Positions 39,745 through 60,828 of a stretch of DNA of 64,000 bases are shown here, one piece after another. Position 1 is the first letter of the stretch. Each line of letters starts with the position of its first letter. Position numbers and translations under genes: made by a program. The stretch is taken from positions 1,344,001 through 1,408,000 of the forward strand of contig CBDCWI010000001.1 of NCBI GenBank assembly GCA_965223325.1, in the 5' to 3' direction. The notes under the pieces were generated by a model that saw only the letters and a program-made list of their open reading frames with translations, ran no database searches and had not been told where the DNA came from. Source of the DNA: Candidatus Multivoradales bacterium. Lineage in GTDB: Bacteria > Acidobacteriota > Thermoanaerobaculia > Multivoradales > Multivoraceae.

Positions 39745-42423
39745 TCAGGGTTCGCAAGCTACCTCGACCACCACCCGGCGGTAGACCCCGTTCGACTCGA
39801 CCGCCCACTTCCCGTCCCAGAAGTTCAGACTTGCGTAGTCGTGGCTCTCTGAGTTCGTGCTGCAGCAACTCGCAAAGTTTTCGAAGGAGAGCGGTGTCCC
39901 GTCGACCCACACAAACGTTCCCTCCGTCGCACTGTCGGTGAGGCCCAGCCACACGCTTTCGCTGGTGTTGTCGAGGATGAACCGGTTCTTGGCCGGGCTA
40001 TCTACCACCACCGGGCTCGCGTCGACGGATTGGGCAAGCGCCAACTGCTCGGTCCAGGGAGCCTTCTGATCACTCAGGAAATACTCGTTGCCGTCGAACT
40101 CACCGAGACTCGTAAAGCCTGAAAGGCTCTCGGGACAGCTCGGCTCTGCCGGTTCACACGCCAGCTCGAGAACCGCATGGCGCCACACCAACTCGCTATC
40201 GAAGCTCCACGACCCTCCCCAGAAGTTGGCTACCGCGTAGTCCCGCGACTCGCTATTGCCACTGCTGTTGTCATAGGTCACGGCGTCGCCGTTCGACCAG
40301 CGGAGTATGCCCTCCTCTCCTTCATCGTTGAGCCCAATGAACGCCATCGTGCCAGAGGACGCAAGCTGTCCGGCCAGCCAACTGTCCTGTGTGGCGGAGT
40401 GGATCGAAGCGAGATCGCCACCGGCCGCGAGCGCTCGACTGCGGGCCACCGGCCAGGTGCGTTTGTCGTCCGAGAGAAAGAAGTGTCTTTGGCCAAACGC
40501 TCCAAGAAAGGAATAACCATCGACCGCTTCGGGGCACGGACCGGTCGCAGGCTCGTAGAGTTCGAGGACCGCACTCAGCTGATCATCCGCCATCCGAATC
40601 TCCGGCAGAAAGCGGTTGCGCGAAAGACTCATCAAAGTATCCCGCCAACCAATCGCTTCGAGTGCAGATGACTCGTTGAGGTACGAAAGGATGCGGTTGT
40701 CCAGCCCCCCTGACGATGTCTGATCGCTCGAGCGCCGAAGCACGTAGCTGCCGACATGACCAACCGCCAGGTCGTGCTCGAATCGCCACGCCACGTGGGC
40801 GATCTCGTGGGTGGTGATACTGGTCGCGAGGCGTCGATCGTTCGACGTGTCCCAGACGGTACTCGGAGCATGCACCGTTGGGCGACCCCAGAGACCGCTT
40901 CGCTGGTAGTCGATCGAAAAGAGCGGCTGTCGAAAGGCGGTCTGAATCTCGACATCGCTCTGGCCGGCGCCCGACCCGGAGCTCGTCGCCCAGGTCATGT
41001 ACACCGTGAGGTCTTCGCCGGCACTTCGCGTCGGCCGCAGTGCTTCGAGCTCGGCAGCGACCTCGAAACGGTTTTCGGTTGCGTAGATCTGGCGGATCAG
41101 CTCGAGGTCCCCCTGGTCCCCAGGATCGAGCGCCCGCGTCGGATCATGGGCGAGGCCATTCCACCAGTCGAGATAGTCGATCGGAAGATCCGCCAGCGGC
41201 ACCTCTTCCATCGTGACCTCGAGGGTGAACCACTCCTTGGTAGCAAAATGAAAGTAGTCCTCGACGTCCTCGGCGAACGCGGCATAACGTGTGCTTCCGA
41301 GACCGAGGTCGGGAAAAACGATACGGACATCAAAACTCTCGAGCACCTCGCCGGAGCTGACCGGTACGGTCCCAGCGGGAGAATCTAAGAGGGTGAGCAG
41401 TGTCGAAGCCGCGCCGCCTACCGTTGGCCCGCTCGGGTCGCTCGGTTCGGTCCCCGGCGGCAGCGGTAGCAACCCTTCGTCCCAGTGGGTGAACGTCGCC
41501 GTTGCCCGAAGGGTGCCCGAAAGATCGACCGACAGGAGATCGGGCGGGAGGTGAAAGAACTGGACGAGCACCGGTCCCGCCTGTTGCTGGATCGTCGATG
41601 CCGCGACGGCTTCGCCAGCGGCGACCCAGGCGGCGGCCGGATAAACCTCCAACCACGGGAACTCGCCGCCACCGGTCATGAGTGCCAGGTCGAGGGTCAC
41701 GCGGTTGTCGAGGTCCGCCATTCCGGATGTGTTGATCGCCAACGCCACCGGCTGACCAGTCGTCGCCGAAGCGGTCGCCGAGAGGGGCTGTCCACTCATG
41801 TCGTAGAGACGAACGACGGCCGGCGACGCCCCGGTCATCTCCGACTCGATGGCCTCGACCAGCGCCGAGATCGTCGCCTGGCTCGACGAAGGCGGCAGCA
41901 GATCGTCACTCAGCCCCTCTGCGATCGTGATCACGTTGCTCGAAAGAAACAGCGCGCCGCCCTGTGAATCCGTCAGTACATCGCCTACTTCGTCGTAGAA
42001 CAACCCCACCAAACGGTAGTCACCCGGGGCGAGGCCGAGGGTCGTCCACTCAAACGAGGTGGTCTTGTCCGCGTCGAAATAGACCCGGCGAACGAAGGCG
42101 TGGGCATTCGAACCGTCGTTCAGTTCAGGAGTGACCGTGCGCGCCAGGTTGGTCACCCAGCCGTCTGGCTGTGGAAGTGGAGACTGCACACGCAGGGCGC
42201 GCCCGATGCGATCACCCGGATGAGAAACCACATCGACCGTCAATCGGGCTCCGGACGGTACGACGATGCTGCTGCCGGCGGGCTGGCCCGGGGCGCTGAT
42301 CGAGATTTGCGACTGCTGCGCGATGCCTGGGCTGCCGATCGCCACAGCGATCGCAAGAGCAATCAGCGTGAACAGGGCGAGACGTGAACCTTTCAGTGCA
42401 CAACATTTTCGGATGGCGGGCAT
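39745..42423 (-). CDS. Large exported protein with zincin-like HExxH motif and two C-terminal C-type lectin domains
   Basis: Signal peptide from ATG 42423; THEIAH; CP.....LG.F....YF, GGDLASI, FIGLND / WLGLTD, EGTFVWVDG. Confidence 0.78.
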   Translation of the reverse strand: MPAIRKCCALKGSRLALFTLIALAIAVAIGSPGIAQQSQISISAPGQPAGSSIVVPSGARLTVDVVSHPGDRIGRALRVQSPLPQPDGWVTNLARTVTPELNDGSNAHAFVRRVYFDADKTTSFEWTTLGLAPGDYRLVGLFYDEVGDVLTDSQGGALFLSSNVITIAEGLSDDLLPPSSSQATISALVEAIESEMTGASPAVVRLYDMSGQPLSATASATTGQPVALAINTSGMADLDNRVTLDLALMTGGGEFPWLEVYPAAAWVAAGEAVAASTIQQQAGPVLVQFFHLPPDLLSVDLSGTLRATATFTHWDEGLLPLPPGTEPSDPSGPTVGGAASTLLTLLDSPAGTVPVSSGEVLESFDVRIVFPDLGLGSTRYAAFAEDVEDYFHFATKEWFTLEVTMEEVPLADLPIDYLDWWNGLAHDPTRALDPGDQGDLELIRQIYATENRFEVAAELEALRPTRSAGEDLTVYMTWATSSGSGAGQSDVEIQTAFRQPLFSIDYQRSGLWGRPTVHAPSTVWDTSNDRRLATSITTHEIAHVAWRFEHDLAVGHVGSYVLRRSSDQTSSGGLDNRILSYLNESSALEAIGWRDTLMSLSRNRFLPEIRMADDQLSAVLELYEPATGPCPEAVDGYSFLGAFGQRHFFLSDDKRTWPVARSRALAAGGDLASIHSATQDSWLAGQLASSGTMAFIGLNDEGEEGILRWSNGDAVTYDNSSGNSESRDYAVANFWGGSWSFDSELVWRHAVLELACEPAEPSCPESLSGFTSLGEFDGNEYFLSDQKAPWTEQLALAQSVDASPVVVDSPAKNRFILDNTSESVWLGLTDSATEGTFVWVDGTPLSFENFASCCSTNSESHDYASLNFWDGKWAVESNGVYRRVVVEVACEP

Positions 42424-42708
42424 GGAGAATCTCCACTCGAGTGATGACAGTGAATCCACCCCCACCGGTCGACGCGACGACGTGACCCGGACTTCACGCG
42501 CTTGACTTTGCGGCGCCAAAAACCGCGCCCCGCCAATCAACGGATCCGCTGATCGAAATGGGAGCGAGGGCTCATCGGACAGACTATCGGGCGTGGAAGG
42601 CCATCGATTCTACCAAGCGATCTGCGCTCGCCTTCGCCCTCGAGTCGCCTCGACTCTGGCTGACCGGGCCCAGCGAGCGCTGCCTCCAACCTCCTCGCGT
42701 CGCGAGGT

Positions 42709-43875: not shown

Positions 43876-46179
43876 ATGAAGCATCCAGACAGCGCGACGC
43901 GGGAACTCGTCCTGGTCGGCGGCGGACACACCCATGTCCAGGTCCTGCGCCGGCTGGCCATGGCTCCGATCGATGACCTCGGGGTCACGGTGGTGCTCGA
44001 CGTGCCGGTAGCGGTCTACTCCGGCATGGTGCCGGGGTTCGTTGCTGGCCAGTATGACCGCCGCGAGCTCGAGATCGACGTCGTACCGCTGGCGCGCCGA
44101 GCCGGTGCGCGGGTGGTGCTCTCGGCGGCCACCGCGATCGACGCGGCTGCCAAACAGATCCACCTCGAGAACCGGGCTCCAATCTCCTATGACGTGGCGT
44201 CATTAGACGTCGGCTCGACGGTCGCTGGCCTGGAAACTCCCGGCGTGCGCCAGTTCGCTTTGCCCACTCGGCCAGTCGCGCGCCTCATCGAGCACATCGA
44301 TCGCTACCTGGCGCACAAGATCAACGCCGACACCGAGGAGCCGCCGCGCATCGCCGTCGTTGGCGCCGGTGCAGGTGGGGTCGAGTTGGCCTTCGCGATC
44401 AGGAATCGCCTCGCCAATGCCGGCCGCGGCTCACTCGTTTCCCTGGTGTTTGCAACCACACGCCCGCTTCCATCGTACCGCGAGAGCGTCGCCGCCAAGA
44501 TCATCAAAGAGGCAAAGCGCCAGCAGATAGCGCTCGTGCCCGCCAGCCGCGTCGTTGCCGTTTCCGCCACTGGCTTGGAGCTGGAGAGTGGCGAGCGCAT
44601 CGCCGCAGAAGCCGTCATCTGGGTGGCAGGCGCTGCTCCGCCAGCGGTGATTCGGGACTCTGACCTCCCCAAGGACGACCTGGGTTTCGTGCGCATCGAC
44701 GATTCGTTACGCGTCATCGGTCACCGCGACCTGTTCGCCGCCGGCGACTGCGCCAGCTTGGCGGCCGACCCGCCGGTTCCCAAGGCCGGCGTGTACGCGG
44801 TGCGCCAGGGGCCGGTGCTGGCTGAGAACCTGACCGCCCGGTTGACCGGCGGACGCCTGCGCTCCTATCGGCCGCAGCGCGACTTTCTCACCCTCCTCAA
44901 CCTCGGCGACGGACGGGCGCTGGGAACCAAGTGGGGTCAGAGCGCGCTCGGGCCTTACATGATGCGCCTGAAAGACCGTATCGACCGCGAGTTCATGCGG
45001 CGCTTCCAGGTCCTCCAGGAGGACGGGCAACTGACCGACGAGTTCGCCTCGGCACCTGCGATGACAGACGATTCCGAAGAAATGCGGTGTGGCGGCTGCG
45101 CCGCCAAGGTCGGCCAGAGCGAACTGGCACGTGCCCTGGCACGGGTCGGTGACCTGGCAGGCGACGTGGCAGCTAGCACCAACCAGCAACTCACAGCGAC
45201 CAAGCGTGCGATCCAGATCAGCGGTCCGCTCGGTCGTTCGCTGCTCGGTGTCCGCGGGGGCGATGACGCCTCTGCCTGGCAGACGCCCTCGGGCGATGTC
45301 GTGGTCACCAGCGTCGACGCCTTCAGTGCCTTCACTCGCGACCACTGGCTGGTCGGCCGGGTGGCGGCGGTGAACGCAGCCTCTGATCTGCATGCCAAGG
45401 GCGTCGAGCCAAAGGTGGCGCTGGCGATCGTTTCGTTGCCCGAGGAGCTCGAGGGTCAGAGCGCCGAAGAGGCCCTCTTTCAGATTCTCGCCGGTGCCCG
45501 AGCGACCTTCGACCCTCTTGGCGTCGTGCTGCTCGGCGGCCACACCACGGCAGGACCAGATCTCCGCGTCGGCTTTCAGGTCGAGGGCACTCTCGACCGA
45601 ACCCGCTCCGCGTTACCCGTTGAAGGTCTCGAACCAGGACACGCCGTAGTCCTCAGCGCGCCGCTGGGCACCGGAGTCATCTTCCATGCCGACATGAAGG
45701 GTCGCTGTCGCGGCCCGTGGCTCGAAGCCGCGATCGACTCGATGGTGCGCGGCAACCGGAGCGCCGCAGCCCTCGCCCGCCAACACAACGTCTCAGCCTC
45801 GACCGACGTCTCGGGCTTCGGACTCGCCGGTCACGCAGCAGAAATGGCCTACCACTCGGGAGTCGACATCGAACTGCACACCGGGCAGATCCCCGCCCTC
45901 CCCGGGGCGCTCGAACTGCTCGAGCTCGGAGAGCGCTCGACATTTCACGACCGCATTGCCCGCATCCGTCGCGGCCTGCGCATCGACGGAGGCATCGAGC
46001 GAGCGCGGTTGGAGTTGATCTTCGATCCCCAGACGGCCGGCGGGCTCCTGCTCGGGTGTGCAGCCCTTGGAGCAGAGGAGCTGGTCGAGGCACTGCGGGC
46101 CGACGGCCGGCAAGCGGCCATCGTCGGCCAGGCAAAAAGGCCCGATTCAGCAAGCGGCAACCTCCACATCACCACCTAG
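43876..46179 (+). CDS. selD: Selenide, water dikinase fused to N-terminal pyridine nucleotide-disulfide oxidoreductase
   Basis: VLVGGGHTH, GAGAGGVE, FAAGD; CGGCAAK, GDDA, GGHT, TDVSGFGL.GH, DPQTAGGLL. Confidence 0.93.
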   Translation: MKHPDSATRELVLVGGGHTHVQVLRRLAMAPIDDLGVTVVLDVPVAVYSGMVPGFVAGQYDRRELEIDVVPLARRAGARVVLSAATAIDAAAKQIHLENRAPISYDVASLDVGSTVAGLETPGVRQFALPTRPVARLIEHIDRYLAHKINADTEEPPRIAVVGAGAGGVELAFAIRNRLANAGRGSLVSLVFATTRPLPSYRESVAAKIIKEAKRQQIALVPASRVVAVSATGLELESGERIAAEAVIWVAGAAPPAVIRDSDLPKDDLGFVRIDDSLRVIGHRDLFAAGDCASLAADPPVPKAGVYAVRQGPVLAENLTARLTGGRLRSYRPQRDFLTLLNLGDGRALGTKWGQSALGPYMMRLKDRIDREFMRRFQVLQEDGQLTDEFASAPAMTDDSEEMRCGGCAAKVGQSELARALARVGDLAGDVAASTNQQLTATKRAIQISGPLGRSLLGVRGGDDASAWQTPSGDVVVTSVDAFSAFTRDHWLVGRVAAVNAASDLHAKGVEPKVALAIVSLPEELEGQSAEEALFQILAGARATFDPLGVVLLGGHTTAGPDLRVGFQVEGTLDRTRSALPVEGLEPGHAVVLSAPLGTGVIFHADMKGRCRGPWLEAAIDSMVRGNRSAAALARQHNVSASTDVSGFGLAGHAAEMAYHSGVDIELHTGQIPALPGALELLELGERSTFHDRIARIRRGLRIDGGIERARLELIFDPQTAGGLLLGCAALGAEELVEALRADGRQAAIVGQAKRPDSASGNLHITT

Positions 46180-52428: not shown

Positions 52429-52746
52429 CTACTCGTCCGGAACGACGAATCGTCCTGTCGGTGTTGGCCTGGGGTTCCTGCGCAGATCATCGTCGATCTT
52501 TTTCCAGGATTCTGGATAGTCCTCGCGCGAAGGGCGCGCCCAGAGGGGAGGCCAGTTGTCGATGTCGCCGACCTGCTCGCCGTCGACGAAGACGGTCCAC
52601 ATCGGCTCCGCGGGGAAGTCGTTCAACCTCAACCGGATCTCATGGTCTTCCAAAAGGCAGATCATCGGATAGTCGACGTCCTCGAAGTACTCGAAGACCA
52701 GTTGCCTCTCCTGCAATGCGCTCAAGGTTACCTTCGGCATACTCAA
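52429..52746 (-). CDS. Putative immunity protein B
   Basis: 105 aa, overlaps the toxin stop; RLNDFPAEP.WTVFVDG...DNWPPLW; paralog at 55177. Confidence 0.7.
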   Translation of the reverse strand: MSMPKVTLSALQERQLVFEYFEDVDYPMICLLEDHEIRLRLNDFPAEPMWTVFVDGEQVGDIDNWPPLWARPSREDYPESWKKIDDDLRRNPRPTPTGRFVVPDE

Positions 52747-54902
52747 CTCACCTTCTTGGTCACGGCCGCGTTGGTCTTCGAAGACGTTCCTATGATCCTC
52801 TCATAGGCTTCTTGAGGGGAGTGGCCAGCATCTAGGTACTTCCCGACGAGTTCGGCGAACGACGGTCCGTCGGAGTAGCCATGGTGGAAGAGGTCCCGAT
52901 GCTGAAGAAGCAGAACGTCTCTGGCGGATCCCATCATCGCGCGAGCCTCGAGCCGTGCCTGATGGCGTACTGTCCAGGCCCTGAAAGCGCGCTCCTCAAC
53001 GCCTAGCCCACTCGCAAGCCAGTCATGGTTGAGGCGCTCGACAGAGCCCGCCTGGCGGTTGTACCAATCCCGGATGACCGACGGGTCAAGATCTCCGACG
53101 GGTCGAGGGCTCAGGATAGGTTTCCAACGCGCGTCCAGGCGCCACTCTAATCCCTCGTTGGCGGCGCGATAGGCAAGCCGATCAAGTGAGCGTTGGTCTC
53201 CGAGACTCCGGACTTCTCTGGTCAGACTCGAGACTTCGGACCACGAGATCTGACCAAGCATGAGCCCATCGAGCTCAGCCGAAAGCCTCGCGAGCTCATC
53301 GGGTGACGCGGAGGAGGCGATGTCACGAAGCCGTGCTGCGTTGTGCGAGGGTGCAAGGTCGAACACCCTCCCGAGAGCGGTCGCGCGAGCGGCACTGAGG
53401 CCGGCCCGCACACTCTGCTTTGCAACGCTTGCTCCTGCTCCGCCGGCGGCGCTGGCGAAGGCGTCGAAGGTCACTCTGCCTGCGGCTTCTGACATGTAAC
53501 GGGCGGTGGTGCCGGTTCGCTTGGCTTCTTGCCAGCCGTCGCGTAAGGTCTCCCAGGCCATTTGTGCACCGAGTAGAAGCTCGGCCTGTGCGTCGGACTG
53601 GGCCTCGGGATCGACGACGCCAACGCCGAGGTTGGTCGCTTTGACGACTGTGGTTCCCAGGGCGCCCAGGTCTTTCCAGGTCTGGGCGCGGAAGAGGGAC
53701 TTGAAGGCTTCCACCGCCTCGACCCCACCTTCGGCCATTCCCTCGACGTAGCCGTACCCGACCTGCTCGAGCACTGGCTCGAGGTACTCAATCGTGGAGC
53801 CGCCCAGGTTGTGGATCTGCTCCTGAACGAGTTCTCGGTAGCGGGGATCGAGAGAGGTCATGAGCTCCTCGTCGAGGGCCATCTTGCGCAGCGCTTCGAT
53901 GAGGGCCGGCCCTTCGCCCGGGCCGGCGCTGGCGATGGCCTTGCGAATCTCGACCACCTTCGCCATCTCGGTGCCGCTGCTCTCTAAGGCGGCGTGGATG
54001 CGCTCGGCGGCGGTGTAGGCGTTGGCGTGTCCTCTTACGTTGACGGTTTCGCCGTGCGTCCAGGCCGGGACGGCGAGCGTCTGGCCGATCTGGAGAACGC
54101 TTTCTCGGGTGATGTCGGGGTTGACCGCGAGTAGATCGTCGACGGTCACGCCGAGCGACTGGGCAAGCGCCGAGAGGCTATCGCCCTGTTCGATGGTGAG
54201 CTGGAAACCCGGGGCGTCGGGGTTGGGTTCGAGAGCCGGGTCGCGAAACACCGGCGCCCAGGATGACTCGACGCCTGCTTCGCCGAGGCCATGGAACCAG
54301 GCCGCATCATCGAGGTTGAAGTCCCCGCCTGCCTCGAAGTCATTGGTGAAGGAGAAACCGCCGAAGTCGACGCTCGCTTCCGGCCAGGCGTCGTCTTGCT
54401 GCGGCAGACCGCCCCAGAGGCTGAACTCTGCAGGCTCGGTGTCAAAGCCTGGGGCATCCCAGTTCCATTCGAAGTCGTCGAGCCCCAACCCCAGCTCCTG
54501 ATCTTCGGTGGTGCCGATGTCCCAACCGAAGTCCCAGCCGAGGTCGAACTCTCGCGGTTCTTCGTGGAGGTTGGAAGTGCCGAAATCGTAGGGCGACCGG
54601 TCGAGACTCCAGTCGGCACCGAACGGATCGCCATAGGAGAAGTCGGAGCCGGTGTTCCAGAGATTCTCGGCGTTGGCGCCGAAGTCAGTGCCGAAGTCCG
54701 CATCGAACTCGAACCCGAGGTCGAAGGTCGCGGGCGGCTTTGTGTTCGAGTCGAAGAGTGAGCCGAAGCCACCCGAAGCTGACGGTTCGTAGCTGTCGTG
54801 CCCGAGGCTCGGCGAGGTCCCGAAACCGCCGTCAGTGCCTCCGAAGGTGTCACCCAGGTCGAGGCTGAAACCCGAGGGGTTGTCGTTTCTGATGTCGGTC
54901 AT
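52743..54902 (-). CDS. Putative polymorphic toxin B: acidic FG/aromatic-rich N-terminus, LysM, helical linker, C-terminal tip
   Basis: LysM IEQGDSLSALA..LGVTVDDLLAVN...LQIGQTLAVP; tip IRDWY...EERA..A...RH.AR..AR..M...RD...G..DGPSF...II.TS.KTN. Confidence 0.75.
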   Translation of the reverse strand: MTDIRNDNPSGFSLDLGDTFGGTDGGFGTSPSLGHDSYEPSASGGFGSLFDSNTKPPATFDLGFEFDADFGTDFGANAENLWNTGSDFSYGDPFGADWSLDRSPYDFGTSNLHEEPREFDLGWDFGWDIGTTEDQELGLGLDDFEWNWDAPGFDTEPAEFSLWGGLPQQDDAWPEASVDFGGFSFTNDFEAGGDFNLDDAAWFHGLGEAGVESSWAPVFRDPALEPNPDAPGFQLTIEQGDSLSALAQSLGVTVDDLLAVNPDITRESVLQIGQTLAVPAWTHGETVNVRGHANAYTAAERIHAALESSGTEMAKVVEIRKAIASAGPGEGPALIEALRKMALDEELMTSLDPRYRELVQEQIHNLGGSTIEYLEPVLEQVGYGYVEGMAEGGVEAVEAFKSLFRAQTWKDLGALGTTVVKATNLGVGVVDPEAQSDAQAELLLGAQMAWETLRDGWQEAKRTGTTARYMSEAAGRVTFDAFASAAGGAGASVAKQSVRAGLSAARATALGRVFDLAPSHNAARLRDIASSASPDELARLSAELDGLMLGQISWSEVSSLTREVRSLGDQRSLDRLAYRAANEGLEWRLDARWKPILSPRPVGDLDPSVIRDWYNRQAGSVERLNHDWLASGLGVEERAFRAWTVRHQARLEARAMMGSARDVLLLQHRDLFHHGYSDGPSFAELVGKYLDAGHSPQEAYERIIGTSSKTNAAVTKKVS

Positions 54903-55003
54903 GGCGCGGGGCTCCGGAAGGCAGGGGTGAGCTGTCAATCGCCTTCTTCCGACATCGAGCGACGTTGTTACCGGCCAACGGAGCGGGCCATTGCGCCCGA
55001 AAC
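54237..55003. repeat. Direct repeat copy 1 (toxin 5' region plus upstream DNA)
   Basis: Matches 57173-57939 at offset 2936; core 54327-54929 shows one mismatch by eye (54860 C / 57796 T). Confidence 0.93.
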
Positions 55004-55176
55004 CAGTGGGAGTCCAATCGGGCTCTCGCCCTTGTGTCGCTCTGGATCATCGCCCGCCTTGTCCAGCACACCGAACATCAAGGCGACCGGCGCGAATAGC
55101 GGAGGAGGACGCCGGAGTGCTCTCTCGGTGGGGTGCAGTTGGAGTTCGCAGGCCCCCGCGCTGGGGAGCTAACGTG

Positions 55177-55494
55177 CTATTCGTCCGGAACGACGAATCG
55201 TCCGCTCGGTGTTGGTCTGGGGTTCTTGCGCAGATCGTGGTCGATCTTTCTCCAGGACTCTGGATAGTCCTCCCGCGAAGGGCGCGCCCAGAGGGGAGGC
55301 CAGTTGTCGATGTCGCCGATCCGCTCGTCGTTGACGAAGACGGTCCACATCGGCTCCGCGGGGAAGTCGTTCAACCTCATCCGGACCTCCTGGTCTTCCA
55401 GTTGGCAGATCATCGGATAGTCGACGTCCTCGAAGTACTCGAAGACCAGCTGCCTCTCCTGCAATGCGTTCAGGGTTACCTTCGGCACCTTCAA
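55177..55494 (-). CDS. Putative orphan immunity protein B'
   Basis: 15 of 105 residues differ from 52429-52746 by my count. Confidence 0.75.
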   Translation of the reverse strand: MKVPKVTLNALQERQLVFEYFEDVDYPMICQLEDQEVRMRLNDFPAEPMWTVFVNDERIGDIDNWPPLWARPSREDYPESWRKIDHDLRKNPRPTPSGRFVVPDE

Positions 55495-55546
55495 GTCACT
55501 CTCTTGTTCACGGCCCCGTTGGTCCTCGAGACGTTTCGATGATCTT
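55491..55546 (-). pseudogene. Frameshifted remnant of a toxin-B-type C-terminal tip
   Basis: Reads KIIETS/(1-nt deletion)RTNGAVNKRVT* versus RIIGTSSKTNAAVTKKVS* in toxin B. Confidence 0.75.
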
Positions 55547-55619
55547 CGCGGTTCTTTTGGGTCCCTGGGCAGTGCCGAAGTCGCAAGGCGAAAGACCGAG
55601 ACGCCAGAGCCCGAACGCG

Positions 55620-56072
55620 TCAGGTCTCGGTCTCAACGAAGGACGCGATCTTGATCTCATCGCGGTCCAGGCCCTCGTGGTCCATGAGAACGGCGCGGAC
55701 CTTGCCGTCTCGCGAAATCCAATCCCACTGGCTTGGGCCCGGATGCGCTCCTGGCGTAACAGCGTCGCAATCGAGGGTGCGGCACAGAGCCTTGGCGAAC
55801 TCCTCGAAGATGGCGGTGTTCTCGGCGTCGTTGGTTCCAAGGCCAAGTCCCTCCTCCACTTCGTCGAAAACATCCGTCGAAAGCTGTAGCGGGTAGTCGC
55901 CGTAGCGCGGATAGCGGATGAGAATGACGGAATGCTCCCTCGGTGGGTGCAGTTCGTCGAGGTCTCGAAAGATCCCAACGCGTTCCGGCGGCACTTCGCA
56001 CACCTCGGCTACGGCGGCGCGCAGCGTCTCGTCGTCATAGCACTTGTCGAGCAGGATCTCATTCCAGATCAT
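55620..56072 (-). CDS. Putative immunity protein A
   Basis: 150-aa acidic protein; ATGA overlap with the toxin A stop. Confidence 0.7.
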   Translation of the reverse strand: MIWNEILLDKCYDDETLRAAVAEVCEVPPERVGIFRDLDELHPPREHSVILIRYPRYGDYPLQLSTDVFDEVEEGLGLGTNDAENTAIFEEFAKALCRTLDCDAVTPGAHPGPSQWDWISRDGKVRAVLMDHEGLDRDEIKIASFVETET

Positions 56073-57838
56073 TGCAGTCGCTCCCAGACCTGCAGGGCCT
56101 TCTGGCGTTCTGCCTGGCCGACCTTTCTCAGGTCAAGAATCTTGTTCGCCCAGGCGGTGTTGCCGAACTTATTGTAGACGCCCAGGGCACCGTACTCAGC
56201 CCGTGTGAGAGGGTGCAGGCCCAACCCCGAGACAGGAAAGAAGCTCGAGTTGTGGACGCCGTAGATCCGCCCGTTCACCAGGAACTGGTCTCCCACGCGT
56301 ACGGCTCTCCCGGCGCGAATGGCCTGCACGTCTGCCGGCATGTTGACCCACGGTTCAGCCACTGTGTTCGCGTCCTTCTTCACTGACCCCTGGCTCACCT
56401 TCTCCGCTCGATGGCGAACGCCGGGGTTCCCGTAACGTCCCCAACGCTCGACGTCGTAGTTGGGCCGCGAGGCAGAACTGTTCGACGGTGCCACCCGCTC
56501 GGCCTGGAGCGGTGCCGAGCCGCGCGGGGTGAAACGGCCAAGCCATCGCTGCCCCATCGCACCCATTCCCATCATCGCCAGGTAGGAGGTGAGTTGAAGC
56601 GCCTTCTCCCCCTGGTTGACCCTGGTGCCCTTGACGGGTTCCGTCCCCGTAGCTGCGGCGATGCCGGTCTCTGTCAGGAAGTGTGCCGGGTTGAGGCCCT
56701 TGACGAACTCGTACGTCATGTCGATGTTCTTCCGCCAGGCGTCGTTGCCGAAGAGCAGGACATACTTGGCTCGCCTTTCGTTCTTCACGGCTGCATCAGG
56801 GCCGCTAGCGATCTCCCAGGCATCTTGCTGCCCCAGGATGGCGATCGCCTCTTCCTCAGTGAGCCGTATGCTTCCGATCTCGTTGGCCGTGAGGTTGCCG
56901 TCTCCCAGCGCACGGTAGAGTTCTGTCGTGGGCAGTGCCGGCTGCCGGGACGCCGGGACGGTTCGTTGGGCCGAGTCGGTGTTGGCTTCCTGACTGACTC
57001 GGCCCGGGACCGTAACGCGTTGGCCGATCTGGAGCCTGGTCGGGTCGACATCGGCATTGGCTTCTAGAAGATCCTCGGTCCTCATGCCGAGCGAGTTCGC
57101 GAGGGCGTCTATGGTGTCGCCGTCCTGAATGACGACTTCGAAGCCTGAGCCGGCCTCGGATAGGACGAGAACCGGGTCGCGAAACACCGGCGTCCAGGAT
57201 GTCTCTCCCTCTGCTTCGCTGAGGCCGTGGAACCAAGCCGCGTCATCGAGGCTGAAGTCTCGGCCTGCCTCGAAGTCATTGGTGAAGGAGAAACCGCCGA
57301 AGTCGACGCTCGCTTCCGGCCAGGCGTCGTCTTGCTGCGGCAGACCGCCCCAGAGGCTGAACTCTGCAGGCTCGGTGTCAAAGCCTGGGGCATCCCAGTT
57401 CCATTCGAAGTCGTCGAGCCCCAACCCCAGCTCCTGATCTTCGGTGGTGCCGATGTCCCAACCGAAGTCCCAGCCGAGGTCGAACTCTCGCGGTTCTTCG
57501 TGGAGGTTGGAAGTGCCGAAATCGTAGGGCGACCGGTCGAGACTCCAGTCGGCACCGAACGGATCGCCATAGGAGAAGTCGGAGCCGGTGTTCCAGAGAT
57601 TCTCGGCGTTGGCGCCGAAGTCAGTGCCGAAGTCCGCATCGAACTCGAACCCGAGGTCGAAGGTCGCGGGCGGCTTTGTGTTCGAGTCGAAGAGTGAGCC
57701 GAAGCCACCCGAAGCTGACGGTTCGTAGCTGTCGTGCCCGAGGCTCGGCGAGGTCCCGAAACCGCCGTCAGTGCCTCCGAAGGTGTCACCCAGGTTGAGG
57801 CTGAAACCCGAGGGGTTGTCGTTTCTGATGTCGGTCAT
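56069..57838 (-). CDS. Putative polymorphic toxin A: shared N-terminus, LysM, pre-toxin TG-like segment, basic C-terminal tip
   Basis: LysM IQDGDTIDALA..LGMRTEDLLEAN...LQIGQRVTVP; AATGTEPVKG; tip DVQAIRAG...NGRIYG...FPVSG.G...L.R..Y.ALGVYNKFG. Confidence 0.75.
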   Translation of the reverse strand: MTDIRNDNPSGFSLNLGDTFGGTDGGFGTSPSLGHDSYEPSASGGFGSLFDSNTKPPATFDLGFEFDADFGTDFGANAENLWNTGSDFSYGDPFGADWSLDRSPYDFGTSNLHEEPREFDLGWDFGWDIGTTEDQELGLGLDDFEWNWDAPGFDTEPAEFSLWGGLPQQDDAWPEASVDFGGFSFTNDFEAGRDFSLDDAAWFHGLSEAEGETSWTPVFRDPVLVLSEAGSGFEVVIQDGDTIDALANSLGMRTEDLLEANADVDPTRLQIGQRVTVPGRVSQEANTDSAQRTVPASRQPALPTTELYRALGDGNLTANEIGSIRLTEEEAIAILGQQDAWEIASGPDAAVKNERRAKYVLLFGNDAWRKNIDMTYEFVKGLNPAHFLTETGIAAATGTEPVKGTRVNQGEKALQLTSYLAMMGMGAMGQRWLGRFTPRGSAPLQAERVAPSNSSASRPNYDVERWGRYGNPGVRHRAEKVSQGSVKKDANTVAEPWVNMPADVQAIRAGRAVRVGDQFLVNGRIYGVHNSSFFPVSGLGLHPLTRAEYGALGVYNKFGNTAWANKILDLRKVGQAERQKALQVWERLQ

Positions 57839-57939
57839 GGCGCGGGGCTCCGGAAGGCAGGGGTGCGCTGTCTATCGCCTTCTTCCGAAATCGAGCGACG
57901 TTGTTACCGGCCAACGGAGTGGGCCATTGCGCCTGAAAC
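57173..57939. repeat. Direct repeat copy 2
   Basis: See copy 1. Confidence 0.93.
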
Positions 57940-58136: not shown

Positions 58137-59444
58137 ATGAACAGGAGCCTCTACGCTGAGCTGGTGGCCTGGAAGGCCTCACAGCGCCGGAAGCCTCTCC
58201 TCCTCCGCGGTGCGCGCCAGACGGGCAAGACGTTCCTTCTTCGCGATTTCGCCGCGCGCGAGTACGAGCGGGTCGTCTATCTCGACTTCGAGGAAGACCC
58301 CGCACTCGAGGGTTTCTTCGAGCGCGACCTCGACCCTCACCGCATCGTGTCTGAGTTGTCGGTCTACCAGGGCGTCGACATCGAGCCCGGGAGGCACCTC
58401 CTGGTCTTCGACGAGATCCAGGTCTCCAACCGGGCTCTCACCTCCCTCAAGTACTTCCACGAACAAGCCGCCTCCTTCCACGTCGCTGCGGCCGGTTCTC
58501 TTCTCGGCGTGAAGATGTCTGAGCCTGGCTCGTTCCCGGTCGGCAAGGTGAACCTGCTCGATTTGTATCCCCTCAGCTTCTCGGAGTTCCTGGCCGCGAT
58601 GGGAGAGGGCCGCTACGCCTCGCTGCTCTCAGGGCTCGAGGGGCCGGAGCCGCTTCCCCCACCGATCCATGCGGACCTCATCGCTCTGCTGCGCGCGTAC
58701 TACTTCGTCGGTGGCATGCCCGAAGCGGTGGCGCACTACGCTCAGTCGCGGAACGCGCGAGAGACTCGGAAGATACAGGCCGAAATCGTCGAGTCCTACG
58801 TCTTGGACTTCGCCAAGCACGCCGCGCCCACAGACATTCCGAAACTGAGCCTGATCTGGAGTTCGCTGCCTCGGCACCTGGCCAAGGAGAACAAGAAGTT
58901 CATGTTCTCGGCGGTCCGCAAGGGCGCCCGTGCTAGGGAGTACGAAAACGCTCTTTCATGGCTTCGCGACGCCGGCCTGATTCACTACTGCCATGCGGTT
59001 TCGGCGAGTCGGTCGCCGCTTTCGCACTACGCGGAGCGCAGCATCTTCAAGGTCTACGCGCTCGATGTGGGTCTGCTCGGTGCCATGGCGCGCACGCCCA
59101 TCGAGCTTGGAGTCCAGGGTGAGCGCCTCTTTACCGAGTATCGCGGCGCGCTAGCCGAAAACTATGTAGCGCAGGAGCTGGTGGCGAGAGGTCAACCGGA
59201 GCTCCACTACTGGCGGAGCCGGGGCGGACGAGCAGAGCTCGACTTCCTGTGTCAGCTCGGAGATGCCATCGTTCCGGTCGAGGTCAAGGCAGGTGAAAGT
59301 CGCCGTAGTCGGAGCCTGCACTCCTATGACCAGCAATTCGAACCGGACACGATGGTTCGGGCCAGCCTTCGGAATCTGAAGAAGGACGGGAAGATCTGTA
59401 ACGTTCCGCTGTATGCGGTCTCTGAGCTGGAACGTCTCGTCTGA
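58137..59444 (+). CDS. AAA+ ATPase (AAA_14 + DUF4143, C-terminal PD-(D/E)xK-like)
   Basis: GARQTGKT, VFDEIQ, AAGSLLG, GGMPE, KVYALDVGL, ELDF...PVEVK. Confidence 0.93.
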   Translation: MNRSLYAELVAWKASQRRKPLLLRGARQTGKTFLLRDFAAREYERVVYLDFEEDPALEGFFERDLDPHRIVSELSVYQGVDIEPGRHLLVFDEIQVSNRALTSLKYFHEQAASFHVAAAGSLLGVKMSEPGSFPVGKVNLLDLYPLSFSEFLAAMGEGRYASLLSGLEGPEPLPPPIHADLIALLRAYYFVGGMPEAVAHYAQSRNARETRKIQAEIVESYVLDFAKHAAPTDIPKLSLIWSSLPRHLAKENKKFMFSAVRKGARAREYENALSWLRDAGLIHYCHAVSASRSPLSHYAERSIFKVYALDVGLLGAMARTPIELGVQGERLFTEYRGALAENYVAQELVARGQPELHYWRSRGGRAELDFLCQLGDAIVPVEVKAGESRRSRSLHSYDQQFEPDTMVRASLRNLKKDGKICNVPLYAVSELERLV

Positions 59445-59646: not shown

Positions 59647-60150
59647 ATGTCTGCCATTGATCTCGAAGCGTCTCTCGAGAAGGCCCAGGAGAGGCTGGGC
59701 TCCGACAAACCGCGTCGCCCACGCAGCGACCGGGGCGAGCCGCGCCTGGACCCTGCGATTCGCCAGGAGATCCAGCGACTGTTGCTTGCTCAGGAGCGGC
59801 CAGCGGTCAAGGCGATGCAGGCTGAACTCGAAGCGTTCTGCAGGCAGCGAGGAAAGAAGATGCCCGCGCGGTCCACGCTCTATCTGGCCATGGCGTCGTT
59901 TCCCGCTCACGCCTACCGGATCGAGGACCTCCCGCCTGGCCCGCGCCGCGCCCTCTACAACCTTCCGACGACAGGAGAGGTGCCGGGGCACCAGCTGGCG
60001 TTCTACTGCCTCAACTACGGCGACCTCGAAGCGATCAGCTTCGCCGGCGGTATGCCCTGGCTGGCGCTCTACCAGGCAGCTCGCATGCGGGGCTGGCGCG
60101 AGCGCAGTCGTGGCCTTCTCGATGCGATCTGCCGTGTCCGCCGCATCTAG
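59647..60150 (+). CDS. Putative DNA-binding antitoxin partner (HTH resembling TnsB/TniA DNA-binding domain)
   Basis: RRPRSDRG..RL......I..LL....RP...........C...G...P.RSTLY; directly upstream of the AbiEii-like gene. Confidence 0.62.
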   Translation: MSAIDLEASLEKAQERLGSDKPRRPRSDRGEPRLDPAIRQEIQRLLLAQERPAVKAMQAELEAFCRQRGKKMPARSTLYLAMASFPAHAYRIEDLPPGPRRALYNLPTTGEVPGHQLAFYCLNYGDLEAISFAGGMPWLALYQAARMRGWRERSRGLLDAICRVRRI

Positions 60151-60162
60151 GGAAGCCTGAAG

Positions 60163-60828
60163 GTGAGTCGCTACAAGCCGGAGCAGGTCATCCCAGGCGC
60201 GATTCGACCGGTTGTCGAACCTCTTCCCTACTGGTTCGTCATCGGCGGCCACGCCGTACGCTGCTTCTGCCCTTATCGCCCGACCCGCGATGTCGACTTC
60301 GGGGTGCGCGAGGCGCCTTCGATCGAGGCCCTGCTCGGCGCGCTCGAAGAAAGCGGCACGACCGAGGTTCTCGACAAGAGCGCCGACACGGTGCATCTCA
60401 CCTGGAACGGCATCGGGGTATCGATCTTCCTGCTCGAGGAGATCGGCCGCTACACCGAGGAGCGCCGCCTGGACGTCAAGGGCATCCTCGCCACCAAGGT
60501 GCACGCCATCATCGACCGCGGCACACGTCGCGACTTCTTCGATCTCTACGTGACGCTCCAGGACCAGCAACTGGGGATCGCCGAGGCGTTGGTCGCGCTG
60601 CGTACGGTCTACGCCCAGGAGATCAACGACTCGCTGGTGCTGCGCGCGCTGACCTGGTTCGAGGACGCTGAGCGCGAGGCCCCACTGCCCGGAGAGGGCG
60701 GGAAAGACTGGCAGAAGGTCCAGGACTTCTTTCTGACGCGCGTTGGCTCGCTGATCGTGCCGCCTTCTCATGTCCTCGAGATCCAGCGTCTGCTGGTCGA
60801 TGTCGATGGAGAACCATCCAGCCCCTGA
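60163..60828 (+). CDS. AbiEii/AbiGii-family nucleotidyltransferase toxin
   Basis: VIGGHA, RPTRDVDF, KVHAIIDRGTRRDFFDLY. Confidence 0.85.
   Translation: MSRYKPEQVIPGAIRPVVEPLPYWFVIGGHAVRCFCPYRPTRDVDFGVREAPSIEALLGALEESGTTEVLDKSADTVHLTWNGIGVSIFLLEEIGRYTEERRLDVKGILATKVHAIIDRGTRRDFFDLYVTLQDQQLGIAEALVALRTVYAQEINDSLVLRALTWFEDAEREAPLPGEGGKDWQKVQDFFLTRVGSLIVPPSHVLEIQRLLVDVDGEPSSP

Follow-up and report, generated by a model that had tools for sequence, protein, structure and literature searches.

What are we to make of two neighboring genes whose products are nearly identical over some 215 residues and then, beyond residue 279, have nothing in common? The two genes, referred to here as toxins A and B, lie on the minus strand at 52429-57939 of a 64,000-nt stretch of DNA from Candidatus Multivoradales bacterium (the window; all positions are numbered within the whole stretch), and an earlier sequence-only reading had proposed that they belong to a polymorphic toxin system with immunity genes. 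Our analyses reinforced that proposal, and we consider it highly probable that the region belongs to a polymorphic toxin-immunity family restricted to one lineage, of which it has two modules in tandem and a decayed one. What reinforced it was observed directly: the architecture, additional paralogues in the same genome, an EndoU tip on one of them, tip exchange that includes a swap in a sister strain, orphan modules (a second remnant-plus-orphan module was found) and the coupling of tip B with its neighbor ImmB, adjacent in 11/11 loci elsewhere. The features of the array are as follows:

57839..57925, minus strand: leader of toxin A, GTAACAA .. CGGAAGAAGG .. GACAGC .. CCTTCCGGAG, in which GGAG is the likely ribosome-binding site
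57838..56069, minus strand: toxin A, 589 aa (from the open reading frame list, Pfam and the A/B alignment)
57194-57838, minus strand: putatively disordered acidic region of toxin A, residues 1 to about 215
57005-57133, minus strand: LysM of toxin A, residues 236-278 (Pfam)
residues 279-589 of toxin A, minus strand: its unique basic C-terminal part
56072..55620, minus strand: ImmA, 150 aa, a candidate for immunity against tip A (net charge -19)
55495..55619, minus strand: what is left of a B-type toxin gene, about 20 codons from its 3' end, with a 1-nt indel
55494..55177, minus strand: ImmB', 105 aa, intact orphan immunity gene
54903..54992, minus strand: leader of toxin B (from conservation with the other leaders)
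54902..52743, minus strand: toxin B, 719 aa (from the open reading frame list, Pfam and alignments)
54258-54902, minus strand: putatively disordered acidic region of toxin B
54066-54197, minus strand: LysM of toxin B, residues 236-279 (Pfam)
53403-54065, minus strand: predicted helical middle domain of toxin B, common to paralogues D and E, residues ~280-500
52746-53120, minus strand: tip B, the last ~125 residues, conserved in standalone relatives
52746..52429, minus strand: ImmB, 105 aa, net charge -10, putative immunity partner of tip B

Every open reading frame (ORF) of the gene order first suggested for the minus strand (toxin A, ImmA, broken tip, ImmB', spacer, toxin B, ImmB) was found, as were the proposed overlaps between each toxin stop and a small downstream ORF: the start of ImmA overlaps the stop of toxin A (ATGA) and the start of ImmB that of toxin B (TTGA). 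Spacers of 125 nt and 274 nt separate ImmA from ImmB' and ImmB' from toxin B, respectively. The toxin B ORF is open to a TTG at 54938 (52743..54938); its true start is most likely the ATG at 54902, judging from its register with toxin A and all paralogues. In all five ORFs the GC content is 0.75-0.82 at third codon positions and 0.36-0.49 at second positions, with 63% GC in the surrounding DNA, and this pattern supports their being real coding frames. The broken tip was also borne out: it retains similarity to the final ~20 codons of toxin B, spread over two frames, and ImmB', with which it forms the remnant-plus-orphan module at 55177-55619, is 86% identical to ImmB at the protein level and 92% at the DNA level, their codon differences comprising 15 non-synonymous and 7 synonymous changes.

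Toxins A and B are 85% identical over residues 1-279. That similarity is very unevenly distributed, being far lower across the LysM than over residues 1-~215, whose codons differ at only 10 places (3 synonymous and 7 non-synonymous); at the DNA level ~580 nt are identical and ~100 nt 5' of the start are conserved. This agrees with the original description of two proteins alike in their N-terminal part and LysM that then diverge completely.

A leader of ~80 nt is conserved 5' of A and B and also 5' of two further paralogues, C and D, and of a stub, all described below (window 57839-57925 and 54903-54992, minus strand; L007:7801-7890; L006:4650-4739; L008:4583-4672). It contains a predicted hairpin (CCGGAAGAAGG ... 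CCTTCCGG) that overlaps the GGAG ribosome-binding site; however, because the positions are mostly invariant, with no convincing covariation, the structure is unproven, and the leader could be a regulatory element or could just belong to the unit that recombines. A search of the toxin locus gave no sigma-70-like promoter, and terminator-like sites at chance level. No RNA run is listed as containing the stretch. Four sequencing runs of one study contain 0.88-0.95 of its sampled words; as their contigs are fragmented and the paralogues cross-map, no conclusion was drawn from them.

The genome to which the window belongs is 6.69 Mb in 2 contigs and 98.2% complete, and its GyrB shares 63-64% identity with GyrB of Thermoanaerobaculia/Acidobacteriota metagenome-assembled genomes. 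It holds the N-terminal region five times: in A, B, C (610 aa), D (764 aa) and the stub, which is 48 codons long. A sixth and full-length member, E (725 aa from its first possible start), was recovered by local tblastn and ORF reading, and has a divergent acidic N-terminus of like composition, a LysM (E 1.7e-7) and a middle domain that shares 43% identity with B's. The five scaffold-aligned paralogues A-E carry five different tips. Paralogue D is the one with a recognized toxin domain, EndoU_bacteria (residues 654-761, E 5.6e-16), which is the sole EndoU in the genome, and D is ~80% identical to B across the LysM-plus-middle stretch, the helical middle domain being common to both. Paralogue C seems to have lost a recognizable LysM. 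A small ORF lies 3' of every member A-E, overlapping the toxin gene in A, B and C and following after gaps of 10 nt (D) and 36 nt (E). In addition, ~3 kb downstream of D there is a 20-residue remnant of the D tip together with a second, 67% identical copy of the ORF downstream of D, which is the same layout as that of the remnant and ImmB' in the window.

Two of these members have features of their own. The stub (contig C2:4464672-4464815; L008:4673-4816) retains its leader and is flanked by two ORFs of ~320-350 aa, which may resemble REP-associated or IS200-type transposases. Paralogue C (C2:4449967-4451799; L007:5968-7800) has in its tip a GS...DLDFAV pattern, presumably like a minimal nucleotidyltransferase motif, for which Pfam gave no match at E<=1.

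Does the scaffold occur in other strains and, if so, with other tips? A profile built on the N-terminus hit 5 of 1.84 billion representative proteins: two of the genome's own paralogues, the stub, one spurious eukaryotic repeat protein and P0005, a truncated protein that is an orthologue of A and 98% identical to it at A's tip. Word-index searches yielded P0009 (759 aa, from a metagenome contig of 39,417 bp, the same size as that of P0005) and P0010 (767 aa, from a metagenome contig of 25,514 bp), both of which have the acidic N-terminus, LysM, middle domain and EndoU. When P0009 was compared with B in 30-column windows, identity was 90-100% up to about residue 470 and 10-50% thereafter, with EndoU at the end of the protein, which is direct evidence for different tips on one scaffold in closely related strains.

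The N-terminal profile found the scaffold in 0/40 relatives, the other genome of the genus included, and in no JGI metagenome contig, and neither this profile nor one of the LysM plus middle domain found it in any of 185,579 species genomes. The LysM-plus-middle profile, run on 400 other Acidobacteriota genomes, met generic LysM only (query positions <=117; 130 genomes). As far as these searches reach, the scaffold appears to be restricted to one acidobacterial lineage, represented by this genome and two metagenome contigs.

Tips and immunity proteins were followed separately. Word-index searches with residues 280-719 of B among proteins of 395-1259 aa, and with tip B among those of 308-2000 aa, returned self or orthologue scaffold proteins only. 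The ImmB profile matched 1/400 other Acidobacteriota genomes (G254), and 24 nt upstream of this match the genome has a 127-aa ORF whose product aligns with the last 110 residues of toxin B at 37% identity (E 7e-14). Follow-up alignment scans recovered the G254 locus again, along with one Pyrinomonadaceae metagenome-assembled genome and nine JGI metagenome contigs. In 11/11 of these foreign loci (L193-L203, whose tips comprise 9 distinct sequences) an ImmB-like sequence begins 9-27 nt after a tip-B-like gene. In gene order and close spacing these pairs from other Acidobacteriota and soil metagenomes match tip B and ImmB, but the foreign tip-like ORFs are standalone (121-154 aa) and have no disordered region, LysM or middle domain, all three of which are present in toxin B; the B scaffold was found in none of the 11 loci.

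Identity to the foreign relatives is 35-44% for the last ~110-125 residues of tip B and 30-38% for the ImmB core. The ImmB-like protein is free-standing (~106 aa) in three foreign loci, and in 2/9 distinct loci the tip-like gene has an in-frame stop or frameshift, for which assembly error is possible, with the partner intact. The tip-B family alignment (A15, 8 sequences) has many invariant arginines plus Asp and Glu, and that of the ImmB family (A16, 11 sequences) an RxNxFP...W...W core; neither family matched anything in Pfam, NCBIfam or the PDB sequences. Weakly supporting the coupling of the pair is the predicted complex of tip B (residues 545-719) with ImmB, which scored 0.53 (runs 0.48, 0.53 and 0.68) against 0.12 for the best control, with at least 67% of contacts agreeing between runs and a partner predicted local distance difference test (pLDDT) of at least 76. 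Based on conserved adjacency and this prediction, the pairing of tip B with ImmB appears well supported.

Tip A has fewer relatives. It was found in 0 of the 400 other Acidobacteriota genomes, a word-index search among proteins of 323-1031 aa gave self or orthologue only, and a protein atlas returned matches that were all below threshold (Ntox35 0.87, CdiA-CT/EndoU 0.84, MafB 0.82 and RNase A-like 0.81); for tip B the atlas gave nothing. ImmA matched no family in Pfam, NCBIfam or PADLOC and no PDB entry. Tip A carries a net charge of +9, and a basic tip A with acidic ImmA and ImmB fits a nuclease-inhibitor pair, since basic toxins with acidic inhibitors are the usual pattern for nuclease-type toxins. 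The suggestion that both tips resemble the C-termini of Rhs or hemagglutinin-type proteins gained no support: the sole relative of tip A is its orthologue, and those of tip B are the standalone proteins. Searching tip by tip brought out relatives for tip B and no recognized toxin family for either tip.

What kind of scaffold carries these tips? The 215-residue N-terminus has a net charge of -41 and is composed of 14% Gly, 14% Asp, 11% Phe and 9% Ser, with 1 Lys and 4 Arg; F+W+Y make up 17%, D+E 21%, G/S/T/N/P 40% and I/V/M/C 1.9%. The motif [FLW]D[LF]G[FLW][DE] recurs in 2-5 copies per protein, the divergent member E included. In a charge-hydropathy test the N-terminus fell on the disordered side in 5/5 members, and the LysM, middle domain and tips on the folded side. 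An AlphaFold model of toxin A (7-row alignment) gave pLDDT values of 28-40 and almost no secondary structure over residues 1-221, with 56-72 for the LysM. The charge-hydropathy result, the composition and the low pLDDT, all of them proxies, make intrinsic disorder over ~220 residues, with short linear motifs and no folded domain, the best reading of the shared N-terminus. What the sequence-only reading called an "acidic FG-rich domain" is probably not a folded domain.

The LysM was assigned by Pfam at residues 236-279 (E 3.7e-8 in A and 1.2e-9 in B), with no other match in toxins A and B at E<=1, and NCBIfam added LysM-containing families only; matches to PHROGs were confined to the same stretch. 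AlphaFold predicts, at low confidence, that the middle domain and tip B are all-helical. Pfam and NCBIfam at E<=1 found no PAAR, VgrG, Rhs, LXG, WXG100, TPS, MIX or DUF4157 in the toxins, and neither a signal peptide nor a transmembrane segment was seen (the highest Kyte-Doolittle mean over 19 residues was 1.31). The earlier observation that signal peptide and PAAR, VgrG, Rhs, LXG, WXG100 and TPS domains are lacking was accordingly upheld, as was its corollary that the delivery route cannot be assigned to a known trafficking domain. A double-glycine leader and a Tat signal were considered by eye and rejected, and the NCBIfam leader models gave no match.

Several results weigh against a polymorphic toxin-immunity family. 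Tips A and B matched no toxin family in Pfam, NCBIfam, PADLOC (a single weak match at chance level, E 0.0083) or PHROGs, the tips and immunity proteins gave nothing significant against the PDB by sequence or profile, and hhalign showed no relation of tips A or B to EndoU tips; as there is no family match, toxicity is argued from position and context only, and both it and export are inferred. The two AlphaFold models are poor (mean pLDDT 34.4 for toxin A and 43.8 for residues 281-719 of toxin B, the latter from a 5-row alignment) and give no evidence of fold, and low pLDDT from alignments of 5-7 sequences is no proof of disorder. The complex score of tip B and ImmB is a weak pass: the weak-support mark is reached by 58/80 solved complexes and 2/110 mismatched pairs, and scores <=0.60 include just 7 of those 80 solved complexes but both mismatches.

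The remaining point concerns the company that ImmB keeps elsewhere. In at least 5/9 distinct loci (6/11 loci) the ImmB-like part forms the N-terminal ~85 residues of a GT2 glycosyltransferase of 401-418 aa, for which Pfam gives Glycos_transf_2 (E 2.4e-33) and the best NCBIfam model is ArnC, below its cut-off. The recurrence of this ArnC-like fusion implies that the tip-B fold could have originated as a partner of that enzyme, and it may be such a partner and not a classical toxin. On a bolder reading, tip B may descend from a protein that naturally partners undecaprenyl-phosphate glycosyltransferases of the ArnC type, ImmB being a free decoy of the enzyme's N-terminal docking domain. The two-gene cassette of L193-L203 is of interest in its own right, consisting of an arginine-rich helical protein of ~126 aa and then an RxNxFP..W..W domain of ~85 residues, either free or fused to the ArnC-like enzyme; the pair may consist of a regulator and an enzyme, or may resemble a toxin-antitoxin module.

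Set beside these points is the close agreement with what Zhang, de Souza, Anantharaman, Iyer and Aravind defined in 2012 as polymorphic toxin systems, in the passages of PMC3482391 that describe a constant N-terminus, variable tips, an immunity gene directly downstream, 3' remnants, orphan cassettes and an EndoU tip. At our loci one N-terminal part is joined to unrelated tips in A-E, and the B scaffold to EndoU in P0009. The same passages name LysM as an adhesion module in some polymorphic toxins. Unlike the systems they describe, the proteins studied here have no Sec/T2SS, TPS, PAAR/VgrG/Hcp, PVC metallopeptidase, WXG/LXG/LDxD, TcdB/TcaC, PrsW or MuF component, no Rhs or filamentous repeats and no pre-toxin or HINT domain; they are also short (589-764 aa), and four of their five tip types (A, B, C and E) match no toxin family. 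The system follows a classical logic; what is new is its scaffold (disordered acidic region, LysM and helical domain), together with tip types A, B, C and E.

How, then, might such a family work? The toxin, having neither a Sec nor a Tat signal, would be synthesized in the cytoplasm, with its parts in the order acidic disordered region, one peptidoglycan-binding LysM, all-helical middle domain (in B, D and E) and exchangeable C-terminal toxic tip, and in the producer the small acidic protein encoded by the adjoining downstream gene would bind and neutralize this tip. Tips would be swapped by recombination in the scaffold and leader, which are conserved, and the process would leave behind 3' remnants and orphan immunity genes that may still protect against kin. 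For delivery, the toxin-immunity complex could be released in the manner of colicins or S-pyocins, with no dedicated secretion signal, the disordered N-terminus serving as a translocation region that threads an outer-membrane protein of the target and the LysM holding the toxin on peptidoglycan.

Release and import of this kind is our best guess for delivery, by analogy and tentatively held, with the rest of the odds lying with some other route. E-type colicins and S-type pyocins provide the closest match to the anatomy of these toxins: the portions of PMC5536347 and PMC6455109 that treat them describe proteins with no signal peptide, a disordered N-terminus and a C-terminal cytotoxic domain, and a small, acidic, co-expressed immunity gene directly downstream, within the same size range (550-770 aa). 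According to the former, nuclease bacteriocins have a C-terminal nuclease, disordered N-terminal regions in 5/8 groups and co-expressed immunity, and are released through lysis proteins or genes of prophages; the latter describes how a disordered N-terminus threads through a porin. The nuclease-bacteriocin groups in that part of PMC5536347 come from Enterobacteriaceae and Pseudomonas, and the host here is an acidobacterium. Several features of the locus speak against the colicin-like route. No colicin or pyocin translocation, receptor or bacteriocin nuclease domain was found (Pfam, E<=1), no lysis gene was seen in the locus, and no Tol or Ton box was recognizable. A LysM stands in place of the receptor-binding domain, and the N-terminus seems much more acidic, and far more aromatic, than those of colicins.

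[quoted passage not shown] T3SS substrates have no Sec signals and have disordered N-termini, and the genome has one FHIPEP (SctV) gene, with an EscN-type ATPase, YscO-like, FliK/SctP-like and FliMN_C genes and two YscD-type FHA proteins as neighbors, and no detected flagellin N-domain. This T3SS cluster, known from the genes just listed, lies outside the window at contig C2 ~1,105,000-1,119,000 (L186:6469-19969). FHIPEP is rare (4/41 related genomes, own included, and 0/24 others of the family), and the scaffold is similarly rare (1/41). However, co-occurrence of the N-terminal part with a secretion system, which the sequence-only reading had looked to as a guide, came to nothing more than a single case, FHIPEP and the scaffold being found together in one genome only and the scaffold in 0/3 of the other FHIPEP-positive relatives. 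A chaperone gene adjoins no member of the family, the LysM module has no obvious role in such a route, and we know of no T3SS effector that acts on bacteria and is paired with an immunity protein of its own. Counting for the T3SS is the contact killing of bacteria by a T3SS-like apparatus of Myxococcus, as excerpts of PMC12075869 and PMC10433427 describe it. If this possibility were true, the N-terminus would be a new trafficking module, and a T3SS would here be delivering, for the first time, toxins that act between bacteria and have cognate immunity proteins.

Still less probable is that the proteins are never exported and act as intracellular toxin-antitoxin or abortive-infection modules, with the shared N-terminus as a sensor or regulatory region. 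The lack of a signal peptide would fit, as would the occurrence of tip B and ImmB elsewhere as a small two-gene cassette without the scaffold and the presence of defense-type neighbors. The loci have no neighboring genes in common: A and B lie by AAA_14/DUF4143, AbiEii and amidohydrolase genes, C by GmrSD, D by insertion sequence elements and SLFN/AlbA_2, and E by a sulfatase and an Lhr helicase; AAA_14/DUF4143 with AbiEii, GmrSD and SLFN/AlbA_2 are of the defense type. However, PADLOC was negative apart from the chance-level match already mentioned, and LysM binds peptidoglycan (Pfam), which is outside the cytoplasm. EndoU_bacteria is, in the relevant passages of PMC3482391, a domain of secreted polymorphic toxins, and a common 220-residue scaffold, tip displacement, remnants and orphan immunity are hallmarks of exported toxins and not of toxin-antitoxin pairs.

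That the toxins are cargo of a type VI secretion system (T6SS), an extracellular contractile injection system or a type VII system, with the LysM as adaptor to a spike, is very improbable: Wang et al. (2023; PMC10673891, in part) describe T6SS effectors with a LysM N-terminal to the toxic domain, where it assists the VgrG-effector interaction, and with a cognate immunity gene, but our toxins lack PAAR, MIX, LXG and DUF4157, have no vgrG neighbor, and come from a genome in which no T6SS genes and no match to VipB/TssC, Phage_GPD/VgrG, Phage_sheath_1 or WXG100 were found, which makes all three routes unlikely (a search for the T4 gp19 tube also gave no match, but its control was silent and it is uninformative).

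Other parts of the window may also be of interest. Beside the toxin array, an AbiEii-type nucleotidyltransferase toxin gene (60163-60828, plus strand) has directly 5' of it a 167-aa ORF (59647-60150) with no Pfam family, and the two are likely a type IV toxin-antitoxin pair. An AAA_14/DUF4143 ATPase gene (58137-59444, plus strand) adjoins this pair, making up a small defense-like island. Further away, the 767-aa product of 43876-46179 (plus strand) has a pyridine nucleotide-disulphide oxidoreductase domain fused with AIR-synthase-related (SelD-like) domains, and the 931-aa product of 39745-42540 (minus strand) has two C-type lectin domain matches, both C-terminal. To our knowledge, C-type lectin domains are uncommon among bacteria.

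With one genome and two metagenome contigs as its only known carriers, the scaffold may have a small general reach. Nevertheless, polymorphic toxins are classed by an N-terminal module that points to their secretion machine, and this scaffold fits no known module. Tips A, B, C and E would be new candidate toxin domains, accompanied by immunity families without relatives in curated libraries, and tip B with ImmB is tied to a conserved cassette of two genes, fused in one clade with an ArnC-like glycosyltransferase. It is our impression that the means by which Acidobacteriota, a major soil phylum, compete have been little studied. In that setting, this family would offer a tractable case in which to find a new export route or else, outside Proteobacteria, a route like that of bacteriocins.

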